This document shows, piece by piece, positions 1-41,996 of a DNA stretch of 41,996 bases. Below the pieces are notes generated by a model, which saw nothing but the letters and a program-made list of their open reading frames with translations, did no database searches and was not told where the DNA came from. The position numbers and the translations under genes were made by a program. This DNA comes from a virus (taxonomy: Duplodnaviria > Heunggongvirae > Uroviricota > Caudoviricetes): the IMG/VR virus record IMGVR_UViG_2681813224_000020; one strand, written 5' to 3'. Within the stretch, counting starts at the first letter, position 1. Every line of letters begins with the position of its first letter.

Positions 1-267
1 ATGCGCAGAAAAGAGTCAAACGTTAGCAGTTTGCCGGAACTCACCAATTTTGAGGTAAGCTATTCTCTGGTTACCAATGAAGTTTACTTGTCTGCATCCT
101 TCACTGATAACATGGCCTGTATACCAAACTGGCCCTTACAAGAATTTCCGGATCAACTAATATGCATTTCTCGAGCAAAAGCTGTTGCCCTAATCGAAGA
201 GCTCCAGAAGACCATCAACTATATGGATGCAGGAATAGATCGAAGTTCAGGTAGCCTTCTCCAGTAG
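1..267 (+). CDS. 3' fragment of an unknown ORF (start may lie outside the window); hypothetical protein
   Basis: Open frame from base 1 to the stop at 265..267; AT-rich by eye; no recognisable motif. Confidence 0.3.
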   Translation: MRRKESNVSSLPELTNFEVSYSLVTNEVYLSASFTDNMACIPNWPLQEFPDQLICISRAKAVALIEELQKTINYMDAGIDRSSGSLLQ

Positions 268-327
268 CTGACGAGTTTTATAATAATTTGATATATATAT
301 ATCGTTCAATATTAGCGAGTACTTATA

Positions 328-975
328 ATGAGTGAATTTAGTAATCTTTTAAATAGCATACCTGGATGGTTATCCTCCTCCCTCACAGCTCTAGTTGGTA
401 CTCTTATTGGCGGATGGTTTACCCTAAAAGGAGTTACCCAACAAGCTAAGCTGTCTAAAGTAGAGACAGAAAGAGAATCCCTTGAATTACAACTTTCAGT
501 ATTAAAAGGAGTTAAGGGAGAAGTTTTCACCCTAATCAATTTATATAATAAAAGGATGAAAACACACATTGATAATATAAAACCGGGACAAATGTTGATT
601 CTCACATTCCCTGTAGGGGATGATAATTTCACATTCTATGAGCAAAATGCGAATGTCATTGCAAAACTAAATGATTCTGCTAGAGACTCAATAATTAACA
701 TATACACATATTCACGCTCATTAATACAATCATTTAAAGGAAACAACAAACTCATTGAGGATTATGAAAAAATCCTTATTGGCATGGCAGACAATAACAA
801 AGATAAAACCATGTATAAGAGATTACATGATGCAAAAATAAATATAATGGTAGATTATGCTCAAGGGATAAAAAATATTGATGCAGAGCTAAGAGATGCT
901 GTCAATAAGGGATTCGACATTATCGACCAAGAAGTAAAGTCACTACAAATGAAATTAAACAAATTAGCTTCATAG
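328..975 (+). CDS. Hypothetical membrane-anchored protein, AT-rich cargo gene next to the invertase
   Basis: 215-aa ORF; hydrophobic segment LTALVGTLIGGWFTL near the N-terminus, then a charged helical region; codon usage is visibly more AT-rich than the phage structural genes. Confidence 0.5.
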   Translation: MSEFSNLLNSIPGWLSSSLTALVGTLIGGWFTLKGVTQQAKLSKVETERESLELQLSVLKGVKGEVFTLINLYNKRMKTHIDNIKPGQMLILTFPVGDDNFTFYEQNANVIAKLNDSARDSIINIYTYSRSLIQSFKGNNKLIEDYEKILIGMADNNKDKTMYKRLHDAKINIMVDYAQGIKNIDAELRDAVNKGFDIIDQEVKSLQMKLNKLAS

Positions 976-1020
976 AATGCTCCACTCCCTGTTCAATATT
1001 TTTACAAGCTTATCAGCCAG

Positions 1021-1053
1021 CCGTGGCACGTTCTTGCATACGACGTGCTACGG
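1021..1053. terminator. Hairpin between convergent genes (possible bidirectional terminator)
   Basis: CCGTGGCACGT-N11-ACGTGCTACGG, an 11-bp inverted repeat with one mismatch, between the stop of 328..975 (+) and the stop of the invertase (-). No strong T-run. Confidence 0.3.
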
Positions 1054-1055
1054 TT

Positions 1056-1610
1056 TCATTTATCTCCGACCGGAAACTTCTTATACAAAGTCGATACGCC
1101 AACATCATAAATGATCGCCACCTTCTGGCGAGGAACTCCTGATGCAATTAGTCGCCCGGCCTGCGCCCATTGTTCTGGTGTAAGTTTGGGACGACGTCCA
1201 CCAATTCGTCCCTGTGCGCGAGCAGCTTCCAGTCCAGCTTTTGTTCGTTCAACAATCAGTTCTCGTTCCATTTCAGCCAGGGCCCCCATCACATGAAAGA
1301 AAAAACGCCCCATCGGTGTGCTGGTATCAATAGCATCCGTCAGGCTGCGAAAATTAACGCCACGTTCGCGCAACTCCTCAACCAGAATGACCAGATGCCG
1401 CATACTACGCCCCAGCCGATCCAGCTTCCAGACAACCAGAGTGTCACCTGCCGATAATGTCCTGAGCAGTTTTTTCAGTCCCGGCCTTTCGGACTTTGTA
1501 CCGCTTATCTTGTCTTCAAAAATCAGCTCGCATCCTGCACAGTTCAGCGCATTACGTTGTAGATCTGTGTTCTGGTCATTTGTTGACACACGTACATAGC
1601 CAATAAGCAT
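1056..1610 (-). CDS. pin: Site-specific DNA invertase, serine recombinase of the Hin/Gin/Cin/Pin family
   Basis: Translation MLIGYVRVSTNDQNTDLQRNAL... with the catalytic Ser motif YVRVSTNDQ and a C-terminal HTH. Start taken at the internal Met (ATG 1608..1610) preceded by GGGAGA; the ORF track extends to 1646. About 184 aa, the size of Pin. Adjacent to tail-fibre genes. Confidence 0.9.
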   Translation of the reverse strand: MLIGYVRVSTNDQNTDLQRNALNCAGCELIFEDKISGTKSERPGLKKLLRTLSAGDTLVVWKLDRLGRSMRHLVILVEELRERGVNFRSLTDAIDTSTPMGRFFFHVMGALAEMERELIVERTKAGLEAARAQGRIGGRRPKLTPEQWAQAGRLIASGVPRQKVAIIYDVGVSTLYKKFPVGDK

Positions 1611-6861: not shown

Positions 6862-6880
6862 TTAGTAGGCTCCAGAAAGC

Positions 6881-6910
6881 AAAAAACCCGCCTGGTGGCG
6901 GGTTTGATTT
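6881..6910 (-). terminator. Rho-independent terminator closing the moron operon (minus strand)
   Basis: Stem CCCGCC / GGCGGG with loop TGGT; on the minus strand it is followed by TTTTTT. Lies between the small ORF (6923..7096) and the V-like gene. Confidence 0.6.
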
Positions 6911-6922
6911 ATAAGAACTTCA

Positions 6923-7096
6923 CTAACTATCTTTCTTGGGAAAAGTTGAAGGCTTGTCGTGATAGCTTTCCGTCATAATTTCGATATCCCCGAAAGGTAC
7001 TCTAGCCATAATCTCTTGCTCATAGTTATCTAGGAAAGAGACCTCAGGCTCACTTGGTTTAGGTTGTGGTTCATTTTGGTCTTCTGGACAGGACAT
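6923..7096 (-). CDS. Small acidic hypothetical protein (57 aa), second gene of the moron; absent from the ORF track (under 60 aa)
   Basis: Hand translation MSCPEDQNEPQPKPSEPEVSFLDNYEQEIMARVPFGDIEIMTESYHDKPSTFPKKDS; ATG at 7094..7096 lies 2 nt after the stop of the upstream membrane-protein gene; followed by the terminator. Confidence 0.35.
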   Translation of the reverse strand: MSCPEDQNEPQPKPSEPEVSFLDNYEQEIMARVPFGDIEIMTESYHDKPSTFPKKDS

Positions 7097-7098
7097 AT

Positions 7099-7629
7099 TC
7101 AAACCTTACTTATTAACATGCACGTTACAGAAATAATAAAAAATACAAATGACATAACCATCCATCGAAACAACTCATTTACAAACGCTGATTTTTCTTT
7201 ATGGATTTTCTCGATTCTATCAATAGCCCTACCATACATTATCAAATGAAATCTGACTGTGTCATCTCTACTACCCCTCAGAAGAAATTCATGTTGTTCA
7301 GGTGTTCGATGCACAGGCATTTTGGGAATATTTCTAAGTTCCCAACATTTCCATAAATAATAAAAACAAAAAACCAAACATACAAAACATGAACATAGAC
7401 ACAATAGAGACAATCTTGCGGATAGACTAGTCTTTAACTGTTGTCCCAGCTCAAAGGACCCAAAAACGGCTAATAATGCAGAAATCTCAACACCAAGCAC
7501 AGCAAGAAGAAAATTAGCTTTGTCCTCTAACCGCCTGTATGTTGTCTTAACTTCTTCATACCTGTCTCTCGAGTACGACAAAATCGTATCTACTTCAAGG
7601 CCAACAGCCTCATTCCTTTGATTGCACAT
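7099..7629 (-). CDS. Hypothetical integral membrane protein (AT-rich moron inside the baseplate gene cluster)
   Basis: 176 aa; N-terminal charged helix, then hydrophobic stretches FLLAVLGVEISALLAVFGSF, LSLLCLCSCFVCLVFCFYYLW and FRWMVMSFVFFIISVTCMLI; clearly AT-rich against flanking tail genes. Confidence 0.6.
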   Translation of the reverse strand: MCNQRNEAVGLEVDTILSYSRDRYEEVKTTYRRLEDKANFLLAVLGVEISALLAVFGSFELGQQLKTSLSARLSLLCLCSCFVCLVFCFYYLWKCWELRNIPKMPVHRTPEQHEFLLRGSRDDTVRFHLIMYGRAIDRIEKIHKEKSAFVNELFRWMVMSFVFFIISVTCMLISKV

Positions 7630-7635
7630 ATTGTA

Positions 7636-14778: not shown

Positions 14779-15097
14779 AAGCTGTATACGGGTCGACGAA
14801 AGTCACACGATAATCACGGCCCTGATACGTCACGATATCGGCATCACGGCCAGTCTGTCCCTGCGTCAGTCTCTCAGTCGTCACAATCAGAATTGCACCG
14901 CTGATCACCTGCCCTGCCTGCATACGGCGGTTTTCCAGAGAGCGATCAACAGTTACGACTCCGGCAAACTGCTTTTTAACTTCGCTGTCGCTGCCGATCC
15001 CGTCCTCATCCACCGTTTGCACTCGGCGTGTTACCCACAAATTGAAGTCGCAAAAATCGGGGTCAAAAAGCACATCTGTTACATCAAGAGTCGGCAT
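14708..15097 (-). CDS. Hypothetical virion protein (head-tail connector region)
   Basis: 129-aa ORF, co-directional and tightly packed. Confidence 0.4.
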   Translation of the reverse strand: MPTLDVTDVLFDPDFCDFNLWVTRRVQTVDEDGIGSDSEVKKQFAGVVTVDRSLENRRMQAGQVISGAILIVTTERLTQGQTGRDADIVTYQGRDYRVTFVDPYTAYGSGFVQAHCELLPFDGGIPVEQ

Positions 15098-32614: not shown

Positions 32615-32704
32615 CCCTTCTTCATAGACGCCCGGTTACACGCCGGGCGAGATCCAAAAAGCTATTGGAATTTTTACGGCTATTTGTTTTTATAGAGGTA
32701 TTAC

Positions 32705-34207
32705 GTGTCAACTTTGAGAATCGGTATGGAAATCCAAGAGTTTGTAAGTCACTATAAAAACCACCCTGTTCTATTCATTGGAACAGGATTTAGCCTACGG
32801 TATCTAGAAAACTCATTTAGCTGGGATGGTCTTCTTTTGAGTGTCGCAATGGAACTAACCGGTAATGCTGAGTTTTACTACGATTTGAAAGCTGAAAGCC
32901 TAGAAGGTGACGACTATCGATATGATATCTTAGCTACAAAACTTGAAGATATTTTTAATAAAAAGCTGGCAGAAGACCGTAACGGTAAGTTCAAAGACAT
33001 CAATGATGTTTTCTATGAGCACATGAAAAAAGGAAAAAAACTAAGTCGATTCAAAATTTATTTAACTTCAATACTTAAAGACCTAAAGATAAAAGAGTCA
33101 ATGATGGAGGAAATAAACAGCTTAATAAAAACAAGAAAAAACATAGGCTCCATCATTACAACAAACTACGACCAACTCGTAGAGAATATCTTCGAATTTA
33201 ACCCACTGATTGGTAACAACATTCTTTTAAGTAACCCATACGGTTCAGTTTACAAAATACATGGCTGTGTTAGTGATCCTAACAACATAATTATCACAGG
33301 TGAAGACTACGCAAACTTCGACAATAAATATGAGTTAATTCGCGCTCAATTACTCTCAATATTCATACACAACCCTATCATATTTATAGGGTATAGTATT
33401 AGCGATAAAAACATTAAGTACTTATTAAAAACCATATTCTCATACGTTGACTTAAATACCGAACTTGCAAAAAGGATAAAAGATAATTTCCTTTTGGTTG
33501 AATACGAAAAAGACAGCATGTCAACTGAAATTACGGAGCATGACATAGATATAGAAGGCATGTCTATCATAAGAATAAACAAAATAAAAACAAACAATTA
33601 CAAAGCTGTATATGATGCCATCTCTGGACTAGTTTTGCCAGTATCCGCAATGGACATAAGAAAGGTTCAAAAAGTTTGGAGTACCATCAAAAGTGGTGGT
33701 GAGATAAAGGTTAAAATTACAGAAAATTTAGATGAACTTCGCAATGATGAAATGGTCATTGCTGTTGGTTCAGAAAGAACCGTACAATATGTTTATCAAA
33801 CAAAATCTGAAATGATACAGAACTATTTTAAAATAGTTGACGAAGCAAACTCTCAGCTTATCGCATTACTGAATAAGCAAACCATAGCTAATAGCGAACA
33901 CTTTCCAATATACGCTTTTAGTTCTATCTGCCCTGAACTAGAAAATACCGAGACATACAGAAAACGGCAGCTAGATAAAATCATTGGTAACCTTTCTCGA
34001 ATTAAAACATGTAAGAGTGAGGCTGTGTCTATTGATGAAATACTAAAAGAAACGAAAGAGTATAAAGTTGCTAACACGATTATGTATTGCGTACTAAACG
34101 ATACTATTTCATTGAAACAACTACGAGATTATTTAACAAAACCAGGGCATAAAATTGATACCCAATACAGGCGACTTTTATGCTTGTATGATTATTTATC
34201 ATATTAA
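32705..34207 (+). CDS. SIR2-like (SIR2_2 / DUF4020-type) protein with a C-terminal domain of unknown function; candidate NADase-type anti-phage defence gene, AT-rich insertion
   Basis: 500 aa; motifs in order PVLFIGTGFS, SWDGLL, IITTNYDQLVE, YKIHGCVSDPNNIIITGEDY, NPIIFIGYSISDKN match the hallmark pattern of the defence-associated SIR2 family; codon usage is strongly AT-rich against its flanks; GTG start with RBS AGAGG; own terminator. Confidence 0.7.
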   Translation: MSTLRIGMEIQEFVSHYKNHPVLFIGTGFSLRYLENSFSWDGLLLSVAMELTGNAEFYYDLKAESLEGDDYRYDILATKLEDIFNKKLAEDRNGKFKDINDVFYEHMKKGKKLSRFKIYLTSILKDLKIKESMMEEINSLIKTRKNIGSIITTNYDQLVENIFEFNPLIGNNILLSNPYGSVYKIHGCVSDPNNIIITGEDYANFDNKYELIRAQLLSIFIHNPIIFIGYSISDKNIKYLLKTIFSYVDLNTELAKRIKDNFLLVEYEKDSMSTEITEHDIDIEGMSIIRINKIKTNNYKAVYDAISGLVLPVSAMDIRKVQKVWSTIKSGGEIKVKITENLDELRNDEMVIAVGSERTVQYVYQTKSEMIQNYFKIVDEANSQLIALLNKQTIANSEHFPIYAFSSICPELENTETYRKRQLDKIIGNLSRIKTCKSEAVSIDEILKETKEYKVANTIMYCVLNDTISLKQLRDYLTKPGHKIDTQYRRLLCLYDYLSY

Positions 34208-34283: not shown

Positions 34284-36359
34284 ATGCAAAAACTTTGGTT
34301 AGACCTCGAAACTTTCAGCGAAATCCCAATAAAAAACGGCACCCATGTCTATGCAGAAGGAGTCGAAATCATGTTATTCGCATGGGCAATCGACGAAGAC
34401 CCCGTCAGCGTACACGATTTAACCACAGACTATAACTTGCCGACACGACTACTGACAGCTCTCAGCGATGAGAGCGTACTAATATATGCACACAACAGCC
34501 ATTTCGATCGCACCATGTTGCGCCATGCATTACTGCACACTCCCCAATGTGTTGTTGCAGGTAGTGCCAAACGCTGGCGAGACACAATGGTACAGGCGCT
34601 GGCGCATGGTCTCCCGGGGTCTCTGGGGGAACTCTGCGAAATACTCGGCGTCCCGCAAGACAAAGCGAAGGACAAAGAAGGTAAAGCGCTGATCCAGCTG
34701 TTCTGTAAGCCCCGCCCGAAAAACAGCAAACTGCGCCGTGCCACCAGCAAAACCCACCCGGAAGAATGGCGGCGCTTTGTTGCTTACGCCGGACTGGATA
34801 TCGAGGCAATGCGCGAAGTCTATAAACGTCTGCCGAAGTGGAATTATCAGGGGACAGAGCTGGCGCTCTGGCATCGTGATCAGCAGATCAACGACCGGGG
34901 CGTCTGCATGGACATGCAACTCGCGCGCGCTGCGATCGAAGCGGTAGACCAGGAGCAAAAGCGCCTGGCAAAGCGTACACAGGAAATGACTGATGGCGAA
35001 GTGCAGGCAGCCACACAACGGGACGCGTTGATTAAGCACATTGTTGAATCCTACAGTGTGGAGCTACCAGACATGCAACGCAGTACTCTGGAACGTCGTA
35101 TTGCCGACCCCGATTTACCATCTGCCGTGAAAGAACTGCTGGCTATCCGCCTGCAAGCCAGTACTACCAGCACCAGTAAATACAAGGCACTGATGAAAGG
35201 CGTAAGCCACGACGGGCGCTTACGCGGTACGCTACAGTTCTGCGGGGCGTCACGTACCGGTCGTTGGGCCGGACGGCTATTCCAGCCCCAGAACCTTCCC
35301 CGCCCTTCACTAAAACAGGAACAAATAGACGAAGGCATCGAAGCACTGAAAGCCGGATGTGCAGACCTGCTGTTTGACAATATCATGGAACTAACCAGTT
35401 CAGCGTTACGTGGCTGCATTATCGCGCCAACAGGCAAAAAACTGGTGGTAAGTGACTTGTCAAACATTGAAGGCCGTATGCTGGCATGGCTGGCGGGAGA
35501 AGAATGGAAACTGAATGCATTCAGAGAGTACGACGCCGGAACGGGTCCGGACTTATATAAACTGGCGTATGCAAAAGCTTTCGATATTGCACCAGATGAT
35601 GTTGATAAACACATGCGTCAGATCGGTAAAGTCATGGAACTCGGTCTGGGTTATGGAGGTGGTGTATCGGCTTTCATCACTTTTGCTCTGGTTTACGGTC
35701 TCGATCTCGACGAGCTGGCGAACGCCGCACTGCCAAACATTCCCCGCGATGTTATCCGCGAGGCGAAAAGCTGGTACGACGAATCGGTTAAACGTAAGTC
35801 GACCTTTGGCCTTTCCGAGCGTGTATTCATCGCATGTGACTCGCTCAAGCGCCTGTGGCGCAGGGCGCACCCGGCGACCTGCGATTTCTGGTACGAGCTG
35901 GAGCGCACTGTCCGCACAGCAATCGCCACACCGCAAAAAACATTGTATTGCGGTTATCTTAAAATCCGACGTGATGGCGCGTGGCTGCGCATACAGCTAC
36001 CATCCGGACGCGCTGTATGCTACCCGTCTCCGGTTATCGAAAAAGGGAATATCACCTATATGGGTGTTAACTCTTATTCGCGTAAATGGCAACGACTCAA
36101 AACCTACGGCGGAAAGCTGGTGGAGAACGTCACCCAGGCGGCCGCCCGCGACGTTCTGGCCGGAAACATGCCGCTTATCGAAGATGCCGGTTACAGCATT
36201 GTGTTGACGGTACACGACGAGGTGATCACCGAAGCACCTGACACAGAAGATTTCAACGATAAAGTGCTTTCCGCGCTTCTCTCCACTAACCCCGAATGGG
36301 CGCCCGATATCCCACTGAACGCTGGCGGTTTTGAGGCGTACCACTACCGTAAGGATTAG
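34284..36359 (+). CDS. Family-A DNA polymerase (3'-5' exonuclease plus polymerase domains)
   Basis: Exo I LDLETFSE; motif [19 protein letters not shown]; motif [17 protein letters not shown]; motif C TVHDEV. Start taken at [11 protein letters not shown] (ATG 34284); the ORF-track start 34242 lies inside the upstream terminator. Confidence 0.85.
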
Positions 36360-36412
36360 CTGCTCGCTGTCATTGCTGCTTTGCTAAATATTGCTTATTT
36401 TATAGGAAAATA

Positions 36413-37174
36413 ATGATGCAGGATCTCAATGAAATGGCTCTCAAATACCCACACCCTGTCGAAACTTTTCGTCAATTTTTAGTCGAATCCGGATTTGATG
36501 TTACCGGAGAAGAAAACAAAGCCGGTCATGATTGTTATCGTTTAAGTAATGGTGCCATCATAACGCTTTACCACACCGGAACGATTTTGATTCAAGGCTC
36601 ACAAGCGGCAAAACCAGAGGTTGAAGCCATTATTAATGAACACTTGGGTAACGCGCCAGCTCAACGAGTTCAGCCAGCCCCGGTTCAAGAGCCAGCCAAA
36701 AAGATTTTCATCGTTCACGGTCACGACCATGCAGCAAAAGAGCAGCTTGAGCTCATTCTTCATAAGCTTGGGTTACCTGATCATTTTATTTTGCAGAATA
36801 CAGGTGGTACTGGACTTACGATAATTGAAGAACTGGAGCGTGAAATTGGTCAAGGGCAGACAGCGACTCGTTTCGGCATTGTTCTTCTCACTCCCGATGA
36901 TGTGGGATACTCCAAAAGAGACGGTCAAGAAGCAGCCCTGCCCAGGGCTCGTCAAAATGTAGTTCTAGAAATGGGGATGTTGTTATCATCACTCGGCCGC
37001 AGTAACGTGGTCATCTTGCAGAAGCAACACCTTGAACAGCCTTCTGATGCTGCGGGTATTCTTTATCTCAACTTTAATGATCATGTTCGAGAAACTGTAC
37101 CTCGCTTAATCCAGCGCCTTAAACAGGCCGGTTTCACATTTAATGAAGCTCAAATAGCGAACGCTTCATCTTAA
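36413..37174 (+). CDS. Two-domain protein: small N-terminal domain plus C-terminal Rossmann-like nucleotide-binding domain resembling TIR-like / SLOG families; candidate accessory gene
   Basis: 253 aa; C-terminal domain motifs KKIFIVHGHDHAAKEQ, NTGGTGLTIIEELERE, FGIVLLTPDD; Pro/Gln-rich linker APAQRVQPAPVQEPA; RBS AGGAAA; own terminator. Family assignment is tentative. Confidence 0.4.
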   Translation: MMQDLNEMALKYPHPVETFRQFLVESGFDVTGEENKAGHDCYRLSNGAIITLYHTGTILIQGSQAAKPEVEAIINEHLGNAPAQRVQPAPVQEPAKKIFIVHGHDHAAKEQLELILHKLGLPDHFILQNTGGTGLTIIEELEREIGQGQTATRFGIVLLTPDDVGYSKRDGQEAALPRARQNVVLEMGMLLSSLGRSNVVILQKQHLEQPSDAAGILYLNFNDHVRETVPRLIQRLKQAGFTFNEAQIANASS

Positions 37175-37461: not shown

Positions 37462-37732
37462 ACGTGAAAGCCTTATCGAAAAGCATCTCGTCGCTGAAGT
37501 GAAAAAAGCTGGCGGGGTTGCCTTTAAGTTCGTATCTCCCGGTCGCCGCTCGGTACCGGATCGCATTGTTCTGCTACCCGGCGGTCGCATCGTTTTCGTT
37601 GAATGTAAATCCCCCGGCAAACCACCACGACCTGACCAGTTGCGCACACATGAACGTCTGCGAAAGCTGGGCTTTACCGTGGTGGTACTGGATAGCAAAG
37701 AGCTGGGGGGAATTATTCCCCCCAATACTTAG
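37451..37732 (+). CDS. VRR-NUC domain nuclease
   Basis: PDRIVLLPGGRIVFVECKSPGKPPRPDQLRTHERLRKLG matches the VRR-NUC (PD-(D/E)xK) core; start at MAYERESL; typical partner of SNF2 helicases in phage modules. Confidence 0.7.
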   Translation: MAYERESLIEKHLVAEVKKAGGVAFKFVSPGRRSVPDRIVLLPGGRIVFVECKSPGKPPRPDQLRTHERLRKLGFTVVVLDSKELGGIIPPNT

Positions 37733-37876
37733 TTATGGTTTTTTGGGTGGTGGAGCTGGCTGGGAAGTTTGCTTCGAAGGTTGAAAACCATTATTAGCCA
37801 AGTCATTTTTAGGCTGATACCCTTTTTCAATAGGGGTATATCCATCTTCCTTATAACTTCTTTTGGTATCTGACAT
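37733..37876 (-). CDS. Small Pro/Lys-rich hypothetical protein (47 aa), translationally coupled to the upstream membrane-protein gene; absent from the ORF track
   Basis: Hand translation MSDTKRSYKEDGYTPIEKGYQPKNDLANNGFQPSKQTSQPAPPPKKP; its ATG shares one base with the TGA of the 206-aa gene (TGATG overlap). Confidence 0.3.
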   Translation of the reverse strand: MSDTKRSYKEDGYTPIEKGYQPKNDLANNGFQPSKQTSQPAPPPKKP

Positions 37877-38496
37877 CAGTTGCTTTCTCCATTATTGCAT
37901 GTTGGTAGTTCAAAACGGAAAAACTCTAAATTTTCTATATCGTTACCTAAAATTAATATTCCTAATGTTGAAACTCGAGGGCGTTCAAATCCCCCATCAT
38001 CGTTTAGAACCCAATGTTCCTCAAGATAAATTTGCTCTGGCTCTGGTGCACTGGAAGCAAATGAGTTAGCCCCAAACTTGCCTGCTATTTTTTTACCATT
38101 TTTTAGCGTAATAATCATCCAACAGGGGACTTTTAACCCAAAGAAATAATCCCAAGCTCTTCCGGTAGGATGTGGCATATAATTACATAACCAACGCCAA
38201 GTTCGCATCCAAGAGAAAAATATCGTTAACAATATTGGGCTAATGAATAAAATCACCAAGTATAAAGCACAATAAAGAACAGGATGTTTGAGATATACAC
38301 CCTCAGATTCTATAAAATATATAGGAGCAAACCATACTGCGTAATTTATACAGCTATAAGAAACAATTTCCACAATCGCTTTAGAAGTATCAAAAGCGGT
38401 ATTAGGATGAATAACACTATAAACTTTCATACTTATAAAACCAGGAATAACGAAAAGCAAAAATATAATAATTTTACTTTTTTCCCAAATATCCAT
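37876..38496 (-). CDS. Hypothetical integral membrane protein, AT-rich antisense moron inside the early replication operon
   Basis: 206 aa; hydrophobic segments IIIFLLFVIPGFI, AVWFAPIYFI, VLYCALYLVILFISPILLTIFF, then a soluble C-terminal domain; RBS AGGGG; opposite strand to all neighbours; strongly AT-rich. Confidence 0.6.
   Translation of the reverse strand: MDIWEKSKIIIFLLFVIPGFISMKVYSVIHPNTAFDTSKAIVEIVSYSCINYAVWFAPIYFIESEGVYLKHPVLYCALYLVILFISPILLTIFFSWMRTWRWLCNYMPHPTGRAWDYFFGLKVPCWMIITLKNGKKIAGKFGANSFASSAPEPEQIYLEEHWVLNDDGGFERPRVSTLGILILGNDIENLEFFRFELPTCNNGESN

Positions 38497-41726: not shown

Positions 41727-41996
<270 letters not shown>

Follow-up and report, generated by a model that had tools for sequence, protein, structure and literature searches.

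AT-rich single-gene morons near attachment sites are routine in temperate phages, and the morons of lambdoid phages were reportedly treated by Juhala et al. in 2000. In the e14 element of K-12, mcrA occupies the slot equivalent to the one described here, between pinE and the prophage end, which bears out an earlier remark that related elements can carry restriction-type genes at this position. Morons have diverse host-benefit roles (PMC3594210), and the moron-encoded inner-membrane exclusion proteins HK97 gp15 and P22 SieA (PMC3594210, PMC10883804) are a precedent for a function in exclusion; SieA has three predicted transmembrane (TM) segments (PMC10883804). Here, we analysed a 41,996-nucleotide stretch of viral DNA (IMG/VR record IMGVR_UViG_2681813224_000020; referred to as the window) with a focus on positions 1 to 1055. 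Based on the defining properties of morons taken from PMC3594210, we found that a cassette at about 283 to 1011 fits this class, its promoter and terminator being putative. The relevant features, given in window coordinates, are as follows:

230 to 213 bp upstream of base 1: attL copy of the 18-bp att core, AATTGTGATATGTGTGAA, also within yfhL, supported by an exact repeat and by empty-site comparison
1 to 267, plus strand: ORF1, a complete 88-aa conserved phage gene of phrog_17793 and an att-proximal backbone gene of SEN34-like prophages
268 to 327, plus strand: AT-rich intergenic region (23% GC) with the left cassette boundary at 282/283 and a putative promoter and 5' UTR
about 283 to 1011, plus strand: single-gene cargo cassette (moron) of ~730 bp with 32.4% GC; the left break is at 282, and pin-module similarity starts from 1012 to 1031
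328 to 975, plus strand: the 215-aa gene, encoding a predicted N-terminal TM helix and helical bundle and belonging to an uncurated family
367 to 426, plus strand: codons 14 to 33 of that gene, the predicted TM helix with the motif A21-x-x-G24-[A/G]25-x-x-[G/A]28-G29
607 to 651, plus strand: codons 94 to 108 of that gene, FPVGDDNFTFYEQNA, the non-helical segment with the highest conservation, located between helices 1 and 2
about 1019 to 1055, no strand assigned: hairpin with a 14-pair stem, which abuts the pin stop codon and lies 44 nt past that of the 215-aa gene
1056 to 1610, minus strand: pin-type serine DNA invertase gene, convergent with the cargo gene (Resolvase, E = 1e-51, and HTH_7; pinE in RefSeq)
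41766 to 41783, plus strand: attR copy of the att core (18 bp, AATTGTGATATGTGTGAA), within yfhL, supported by an exact repeat and by comparison with the K-12 empty site

Bases 1 to 1700 of the window are 100% identical to the chromosome of E. coli ECONIH2. In that genome, yfhH ends 316 bp to the left of window base 1 and is followed by a ~42-kb prophage that extends as far as the integrase gene and yfhL, which are at the right end of the window. Using the yfhH-yfhL locus of K-12 MG1655 as the empty site, we found that the left flank is collinear with K-12 up to and through the att core and that the right flank is collinear with K-12 from the att core onward, while the inner sides are unrelated to K-12. 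Because collinearity with K-12 is confined to the outside of the att core, all of 1 to 1055 is prophage DNA, and this segment lies between the att direct repeats that the empty site defines. The integration point falls within codons 10 to 16 of yfhL, i.e., at the 5' end of the gene, and the phage supplies a substitute yfhL 5' end at attR, in which 16 residues replace 16. The viral metagenome contig L034 carries Int, ORF1, the 215-aa gene and Pin contiguously, which corresponds to the attP-joined form. We conclude that 1 to 1055 forms the end next to att of a SEN34-like (Brunovirus-like) myovirus prophage of ~42 kb in yfhL. The preliminary description of this sequence had correctly put the left attachment site outside the window. 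It had also considered that this segment could be the start of neighbouring host or island DNA, with the prophage ending between 975 and 1056 and host genes to the left of that point. The empty-site comparison did not place a boundary there. The only observation in favour of that reading is a compositional step at ~1000; against it, the empty-site junction lies 213 bp to the left of base 1, ORF1 is a member of a PHROG family that adjoins the integrase in phage SEN34, and contig L034 holds ORF1 and the 215-aa gene between Int and Pin. These results refute a host or island origin of the left part of the window, which we regard as next to impossible.

ORF1 starts with an ATG at base 1 and encodes 88 aa, which is also the length annotated for its relatives in RefSeq and GenBank. 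It belongs to PHROG 17793, as evidenced by a full-length profile match (E = 8.9e-45; residues 5 to 92 of a 92-aa version aligned to profile positions 1 to 88 of 91), and its homologues form 61 clusters of 87 to 88 aa that are found only in E. coli, Salmonella and Citrobacter. Some gene calls for ORF1 are longer (113 to 145 aa). In these, the upstream frame differs between strains, at homopolymer runs, and because the in-frame extension changes frame in this way, we consider it non-coding. ORF1 had been read as the 3' end of another ORF; the full-length profile match, the 87- to 88-aa homologues and the strain-variable upstream frame led us to reject a truncated gene in favour of a complete one. 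ORF1 is present in 125 of 5426 complete E. coli genomes, and in Salmonella phage SEN34 it is located just across att from the integrase. At 43.1% GC, about 1 SD below the mean, it is mildly AT-rich, so that the statement that both ORFs are visibly AT-rich holds for the 215-aa ORF (33.0% GC) and not for ORF1. The structural model of ORF1 has a beta3-alpha, COMM-domain-like fold at moderate confidence (pLDDT 76.5, pTM 0.56). In contrast to COMM domains, to which its identity is 9 to 17%, ORF1 stands alone at 88 aa, and it had no match to the Pfam COMM family. ORF1 and the 215-aa gene were also considered as a two-gene system, which we rejected because each is found without the other. In this phage group, ORF1 is part of the conserved backbone; it is neither cargo nor a fragment.

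The segment from 283 to 1011 behaves differently in comparisons of otherwise collinear relatives, in which it is present or absent. Among the 125 ORF1-bearing E. coli genomes, 80 run on into the 215-aa gene, and about 45 break at 282. The gene thus occurs in 80 of 5426 complete E. coli genomes, in each case as a single chromosomal copy, at 95 to 100% identity. Phage vB_EcoM-606R2, which occupies the same chromosomal site, matches at 95% from 400 bp to the left of the window up to 282 and then diverges; its slot holds an unrelated 281-aa gene and a truncated pin. This allele is also present in FDAARGOS_144 and an O111:H11 strain, and family scans of the 281-aa product returned no assignment. 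On the right side, resemblance to pin loci without this gene sets in at 1012 to 1031, which marks the right cassette boundary. Further variation at this position includes strain 2014C-3061, with the 215-aa gene, a pin remnant and a serine acetyltransferase gene, and phage SEN34, with an acyltransferase_3 gene. The slot, arranged as attL, ORF1, cargo and pin, has at least four alternative contents.

The same segment deviates in base composition. Its GC content is 32.4% compared with a window mean of 49.4%; a value as low as this is found in only 0.6% of 729-bp windows. Homologues of the 215-aa gene have 33 to 37% GC in every host, while their flanks have 41 to 60%. Outside the coding region, ~45 nt upstream of the ORF and about 25 nt past its stop codon are conserved together with the gene in the Enterobacter and Dickeya copies; the mobile unit comprises the 215-aa gene plus short non-coding stubs. 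A consensus scan of the plus strand of 268 to 327 revealed no strong or convincing sigma-70 promoter. A 10-bp direct repeat, GTTCAATATT, that flanks the ORF was considered as an insertion scar and was rejected, as it is not conserved around the homologues from other genera; this test was post hoc. We conclude that 283 to 1011 is a one-gene moron, i.e., a horizontally mobile AT-rich cassette in an attL-pin slot with variable accessory genes. The proposal that the 215-aa gene could represent an accessory locus of the prophage is supported in this form, as a presence/absence-polymorphic and compositionally foreign single-gene cassette between attL and the invertase gene.

The hairpin at ~1019 to 1055 has a dG of −22.5 kcal/mol (z = −2.5; 3 of 200 shuffled sequences were as stable) and is followed on the plus strand by TTTCATTTAT, so that the hairpin and its T-rich tail span 1019 to 1065. 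It could be a terminator for the cargo gene; a simple scan for terminators picked it up on neither of the two strands. In loci without the 215-aa gene, where similarity starts at 1012 to 1031, the hairpin is kept with pin, and 1014 to 1048 recurs at 100% identity in Stx phages. Because the hairpin travels with pin in these two settings, we rejected the idea of a cassette-borne terminator; the hairpin belongs to the pin module and moves with the invertase gene. A search of the region against Rfam gave a sub-threshold CssrB match on the hairpin alone (31.7 bits versus a gathering score of 76). It had been described as shared with the convergent invertase gene: the hairpin is real and abuts the pin stop codon, and it is not specific to this gene pair.

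In a word-indexed search, we identified 216 homologues of the 215-aa protein of ~218 aa that are 62 to 74% identical to it and distributed across the Enterobacterales. An exhaustive profile search extended the family to 680 clusters at E ≤ 1e-3, of which 264 remained at E ≤ 1e-10; nearly all of these are ~190 to 230 aa and match over their full length, and the total of ~680 refers to clusters defined at 50% identity. The dN/dS ratio of the gene is 0.10 to 0.17, indicative of purifying selection, and this ratio together with the full-length conservation argues that the ORF is a genuine gene under selection. In some E. coli lineages, the gene is disrupted at its 5' end (139-aa calls) and, therefore, appears to be dispensable in those lineages. 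Taking these data together with the boundary and cassette analyses, we are highly confident in the combined anatomy, i.e., that 1 to 1055 lies inside the prophage, that the cassette is a moron and that it carries a real membrane-protein gene.

The 215-aa protein returned nothing significant in Pfam, NCBIfam, PADLOC or PHROGs, and none of the 5027 PADLOC v2 models matched it. Searches of the same four collections with 77 diverse relatives gave scattered single matches and no consistent one; among these were weak, non-significant matches of 10 of the 77 distant relatives to phrog_33426, a family of unknown function. Neither the protein nor these 77 relatives showed homology to a known or candidate defence protein in Pfam, NCBIfam or PADLOC v2. 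We found no named member among the family homologues, nothing below E = 0.07 in a comparison of the family profile with PDB sequences, and nothing significant in a Foldseek search of the model against the PDB (best E = 0.14). A literature search on the locus, the accessions and yfhL prophages found nothing on the 215-aa gene. Homology and structure searches had been proposed for both ORFs; they assigned ORF1 to phrog_17793 with a COMM-like model and left the 215-aa protein without a named family.

The 215-aa protein had been described as membrane anchored, and ORF 328 to 975 on the plus strand indeed contains one N-terminal hydrophobic helix at residues ~14 to 33. Within the helix motif, G24 is present in 72 and G29 in 66 of the 77 superfamily members, and this pattern of small residues fits helix-helix packing in the membrane. 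Among close members, the mean number of Lys and Arg residues is 0.13 before the helix and 4.0 after it, with more after the helix in 55 of 55; for the superfamily, the corresponding values are 0.35 and 2.9, with more after the helix in 71 of 77. Based on the positive-inside rule, this excess predicts an N-out/C-in topology for a protein with a single ~20-residue hydrophobic helix, with the helical bundle in the cytoplasm. We infer that the product resides in the inner membrane by this one N-terminal helix.

An AF2 model of the protein (pLDDT 81.7, pTM 0.71) has values above 90 over most of residues 45 to 215 and below 50 in the TM segment. It predicts one continuous helix from 14 to 82, of which the first 20 residues would be the membrane anchor, followed by a loop at 83 to 101, short helices at 102 to 111 and long helices at 116 to 154 and 160 to 214. 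In the segment of codons 94 to 108, F94, G97, D99, N100, F101, F103, Y104, E105, N107 and A108 are invariant in the close family; across the superfamily, F101 is invariant and N107 is conserved in at least 90%. The polar or aromatic positions conserved throughout the superfamily are E65, Y73, F101, N107, Y126, N139, N140 and Y177. As modelled, the fold is a generic up-down helical bundle that carries no functional signal. Its resemblance to 4HB_MCP, TorS and DUF3829 comes with an identity of 5 to 12%, and designed helical bundles reach equally good scores, which marks the match as generic. 4HB_MCP and TorS sensors are found in the periplasm, flanked by a TM helix on either side and fused to signalling domains, whereas the 215-aa protein has one TM helix, is predicted to be cytoplasmic and has no output domain. 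It had no Pfam match and lacks the periplasmic position between two TM helices, and we therefore did not assign it to the 4HB_MCP, TorS or DUF3829 families.

Homologues are found as solo genes in a variety of mobile contexts, which include an ICE, toxin-antitoxin islets, a satellite-like element and unrelated prophages. In Providencia lambdoid prophages, the homologue is immediately downstream of, and co-oriented with, genes for a CI-like repressor and an HSDR_N protein. In Dickeya dadantii 3937, it is located in an ICE beside CcdAB and an IS110, and in Enterobacter in an islet adjoining HigBA. In Klebsiella, the homologue adjoins an integrase fragment, and the element in which it resides also encodes phage capsid and adaptor proteins. 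The Salmonella contig with the homologue includes genes of the primase type (DUF927) as well as genes for a resolvase and a phage portal protein. A gene for a ThsB-like TIR protein is located two genes away from that of a distant relative, and ten viral contigs unrelated to this phage also carry a gene of the family. Family scans classified most neighbours as unknown, the exceptions being DUF4238, HSDR_N and the ThsB-like TIR protein. We found no partner gene conserved across these contexts and no neighbour shared between them. The close family is present in only 7 of about 186,000 species-representative genomes and, hence, represents a sporadic, strain-level accessory gene.

The explanation that best accounts for these observations is an ordinary prophage moron with an uncharacterised candidate defence or exclusion gene, to which we assign a chance only just short of even. 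A defence or exclusion function of the 215-aa protein, taken by itself, is a possibility that we place somewhat lower still. The association with defence is inferred from position, i.e., from moron slots, toxin-antitoxin (TA) neighbours and one TIR neighbour. In qualitative terms, the cargo- or defence-type locations comprise the immunity-region slot, the att-proximal slots, ICE cargo beside CcdAB, the HigBA islet, the TIR neighbourhood and the slot equivalent to that of mcrA in e14. Under this explanation, the gene would be expressed in the lysogen from its own AT-rich upstream region, its transcript would be terminated at or near the hairpin at 1019 to 1055, and the protein would shield the lysogen, and hence the prophage, from incoming phages or other mobile DNA. 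For expression from the repressed prophage, the only indirect support comes from the Providencia homologue, with its position behind the CI-like repressor gene in the same orientation. Positions E65, Y73, N107, Y126, N139/N140 and Y177 of the cytoplasmic bundle could recognise a phage- or injection-associated cue at the inner face of the membrane. The glycine-zipper-like TM helix could then mediate oligomerisation or contact with a membrane partner, and the outcome would be blocked genome entry or membrane permeabilisation (abortive infection). The cytoplasm-facing bulk of the protein differs from the best-known entry blockers, and because most of the protein faces inward, a sensor combined with a TM oligomer, with an abortive or an entry-jamming outcome, is slightly favoured among defence mechanisms. 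As a specific mechanism, it is unlikely to be correct. In its broadest form, the proposal is that the 215-aa protein is the first recognised member of a widespread (~680 clusters) single-gene anti-phage system, in which a membrane-tethered cytoplasmic bundle would sense an infection cue, the glycine-zipper TM helix would permeabilise the membrane or jam the DNA-entry channel, and a ~0.75-kb AT-rich cassette would move between prophages, satellites, ICEs and TA islets. We offer this proposal tentatively and consider it rather doubtful.

Lambda Lom and Bor as well as O-antigen modifiers are examples of lysogenic-conversion genes, and the 215-aa gene could similarly provide a benefit other than defence by altering envelope physiology, stress tolerance or colonisation. 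This possibility draws on the diversity of host-benefit roles of morons (PMC3594210), on the acyltransferases found in the same slot (acyltransferase_3 in SEN34 and the serine acetyltransferase in 2014C-3061), which represent envelope-modifying conversion genes, and on the similarity of the fold to membrane-anchored four-helix-bundle sensor domains. However, O-antigen modification is usually an exclusion mechanism itself, the 215-aa protein has no enzyme-like family match, and the family is spread over phages, ICEs and TA islets of genera whose lifestyles differ widely, among them plant pathogens, gut commensals and insect associates, which fits a generic role against mobile genetic elements (MGEs) better than a niche-specific one. 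We consider a non-defence conversion function improbable, if still worth keeping in mind.

The proximity to CcdAB in the Dickeya ICE and to HigBA in Enterobacter would also suit a selfish role, in which an addiction or toxin-like membrane protein, or a factor that excludes conjugative or related elements, stabilises the carrier MGE. The single TM helix with its glycine-zipper motif is typical of small membrane toxins, and disruption in some lineages is as expected of a costly gene. Yet in none of the contexts does a conserved partner or antitoxin gene adjoin it, the length of 215 aa and the large, conserved soluble domain set the protein apart from type I or small membrane toxins, and the gene is kept intact in the 80 E. 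coli genomes at 95 to 100% identity, which together make a selfish role distinctly unlikely. A role in the lytic cycle, such as in lysis timing, in a function associated with the tail fibre or invertase, or in DNA injection, is suggested by the position of the gene next to the tail-fibre/invertase module and by the weak, non-significant similarity to phage families of unknown function, i.e., the phrog_33426 matches described above. But the gene is absent from close and otherwise collinear prophages, including the induced phage vB_EcoM-606R2, it is present in an ICE and in chromosomal islets that lack phage genes, and its orientation opposes that of the late operon; such a role is, therefore, very unlikely.

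With the question of the prophage boundary now settled, the value of the locus lies in a conserved membrane-protein family under purifying selection that has no Pfam, NCBIfam, PADLOC or PDB entry, with only unnamed PHROG neighbours, and that recurs at positions used by phages and other mobile elements for exclusion and defence genes. The gene is small and self-contained and is present in clinical E. coli (ECONIH2 and the STEC O103, O45 and O55 lineages), and assigning a function to it could cover several hundred protein clusters. As a natural hot spot, the slot composed of attL, ORF1, cargo and pin also lends itself to the search for further cargo.

As in e14 of K-12, an accessory gene is located between a pin invertase gene and the prophage end, and pinE is homologous to the pin gene in the window. 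Unlike in e14, where McrA is a type IV HNH restriction enzyme encoded in the same orientation as pin, the gene described here encodes an unrelated membrane protein and is convergent with pin. P22 SieA, T4 Imm and HK97 gp15 (PMC10883804, PMC3594210) are prophage-borne single-gene inner-membrane proteins of 60 to 220 aa that have no enzymatic domain and comprise several unrelated sequence types, a description that the 215-aa protein shares. In contrast to SieA, it has one TM helix and a bundle of ~180 residues that is predicted to be cytoplasmic; it has no sequence similarity to SieA, Imm or gp15, and an exclusion activity is putative. Compared with lambdoid morons, the cassette resides in a SEN34-like myovirus, in an att-proximal position beside pin rather than inside the tail operon, with a putative promoter and terminator, and its product has no sequence or fold relation to gp15/YebO. 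Nevertheless, as in lambdoid morons such as HK97 gene 15 (PMC3594210), an extra gene of deviant GC content that is absent from close relatives is located between backbone genes with its own non-coding stubs, and, as for gene 15, it encodes a small predicted inner-membrane protein with homologues that are also found outside prophages.

The 215-aa cargo gene next to the serine invertase gene pin is flanked by a 10-bp direct repeat, GTTCAATATT, at positions 304-313 and 991-1000 of the window. These two copies are the only ones in the whole window, compared with 0.09 expected in a post hoc test; a comparison of flanks revealed that the repeat is not kept around homologues of the gene in other genera. 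In E. coli O55:H7 CB9615-type genomes, the gene is called as a 139-aa version starting at the internal Met77 (proteins P0118 and P0119). In these shorter versions, found on about 130 contigs from some E. coli lineages, the 5' part, including the transmembrane helix, is disrupted.

Prophages that have the 281-aa gene as their alternative cargo, and likewise strain 2014C-3061, have a neighboring pin gene that is either truncated or a pseudogene. The affected copies in the compared loci are as follows:
L017, 3983-4297, truncated or pseudogene pin
L030, 4965-5232, truncated or pseudogene pin
L031, 4967-5233, truncated or pseudogene pin
L029, 4207-4332, truncated or pseudogene pin
Cargo exchange in the slot beside pin has repeatedly knocked out the switch for tail-fibre inversion. 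For CssrB, a Shigella sRNA, Rfam gives a sub-threshold match (31.7 bits versus a gathering score of 76; E = 4e-4) that spans the hairpin and the 3' end of pin (window 1022-1078, -) and suggests that the element downstream of pin may be transcribed in relatives as an sRNA or 3' UTR.

Two homopolymer runs, A7 and C10, occur between attL and the att-proximal backbone gene ORF1 (14860-14910 of locus L001; positions about -140 to -90 relative to window base 1). Upstream-extended database calls of ORF1 (113-145 aa) disagree in frame and length precisely at these runs, and therefore the homopolymer lengths vary among strains; this stretch could be a slippage-prone tract. At the attachment site, the phage brings its own replacement for yfhL codons 1-16 (window 41736-41783; L001 14741-14787), and yfhL therefore stays intact at attR after integration, with the N-terminus MSLLITKRC... 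in place of MALLITKKC..., while a 19-codon stub is left at attL.

A gap of 35-37% GC interrupts the baseplate/tail operon at window 6862-7635, over which the RefSeq annotation of ECONIH2 is empty. It contains two ORFs:
6923-7102, 59-aa ORF
7099-7629 (-), 176-aa ORF with several hydrophobic segments
A Pfam search with the 176-aa ORF gave no match. The gap looks like a further moron, within the late operon.

Three additional loci stand out, with the first two (SIR2 and TIR) in the replication region of the prophage:
~32645-34147, SIR2-family gene
~36353-37114, TIR-domain gene
~37673-38436 (-), DUF6338 gene and a small ORF
Both the SIR2 region and the DUF6338 region form AT-rich islands, in which the GC content of 729-bp windows falls to 31-34%, and the SIR2, TIR, and DUF6338 genes are probably more defence or accessory cargo of the prophage. 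The SIR2-family and TIR-domain genes flank the phage DNA polymerase gene on either side, and the pair recalls the components of Thoeris, here parted by the polymerase gene.
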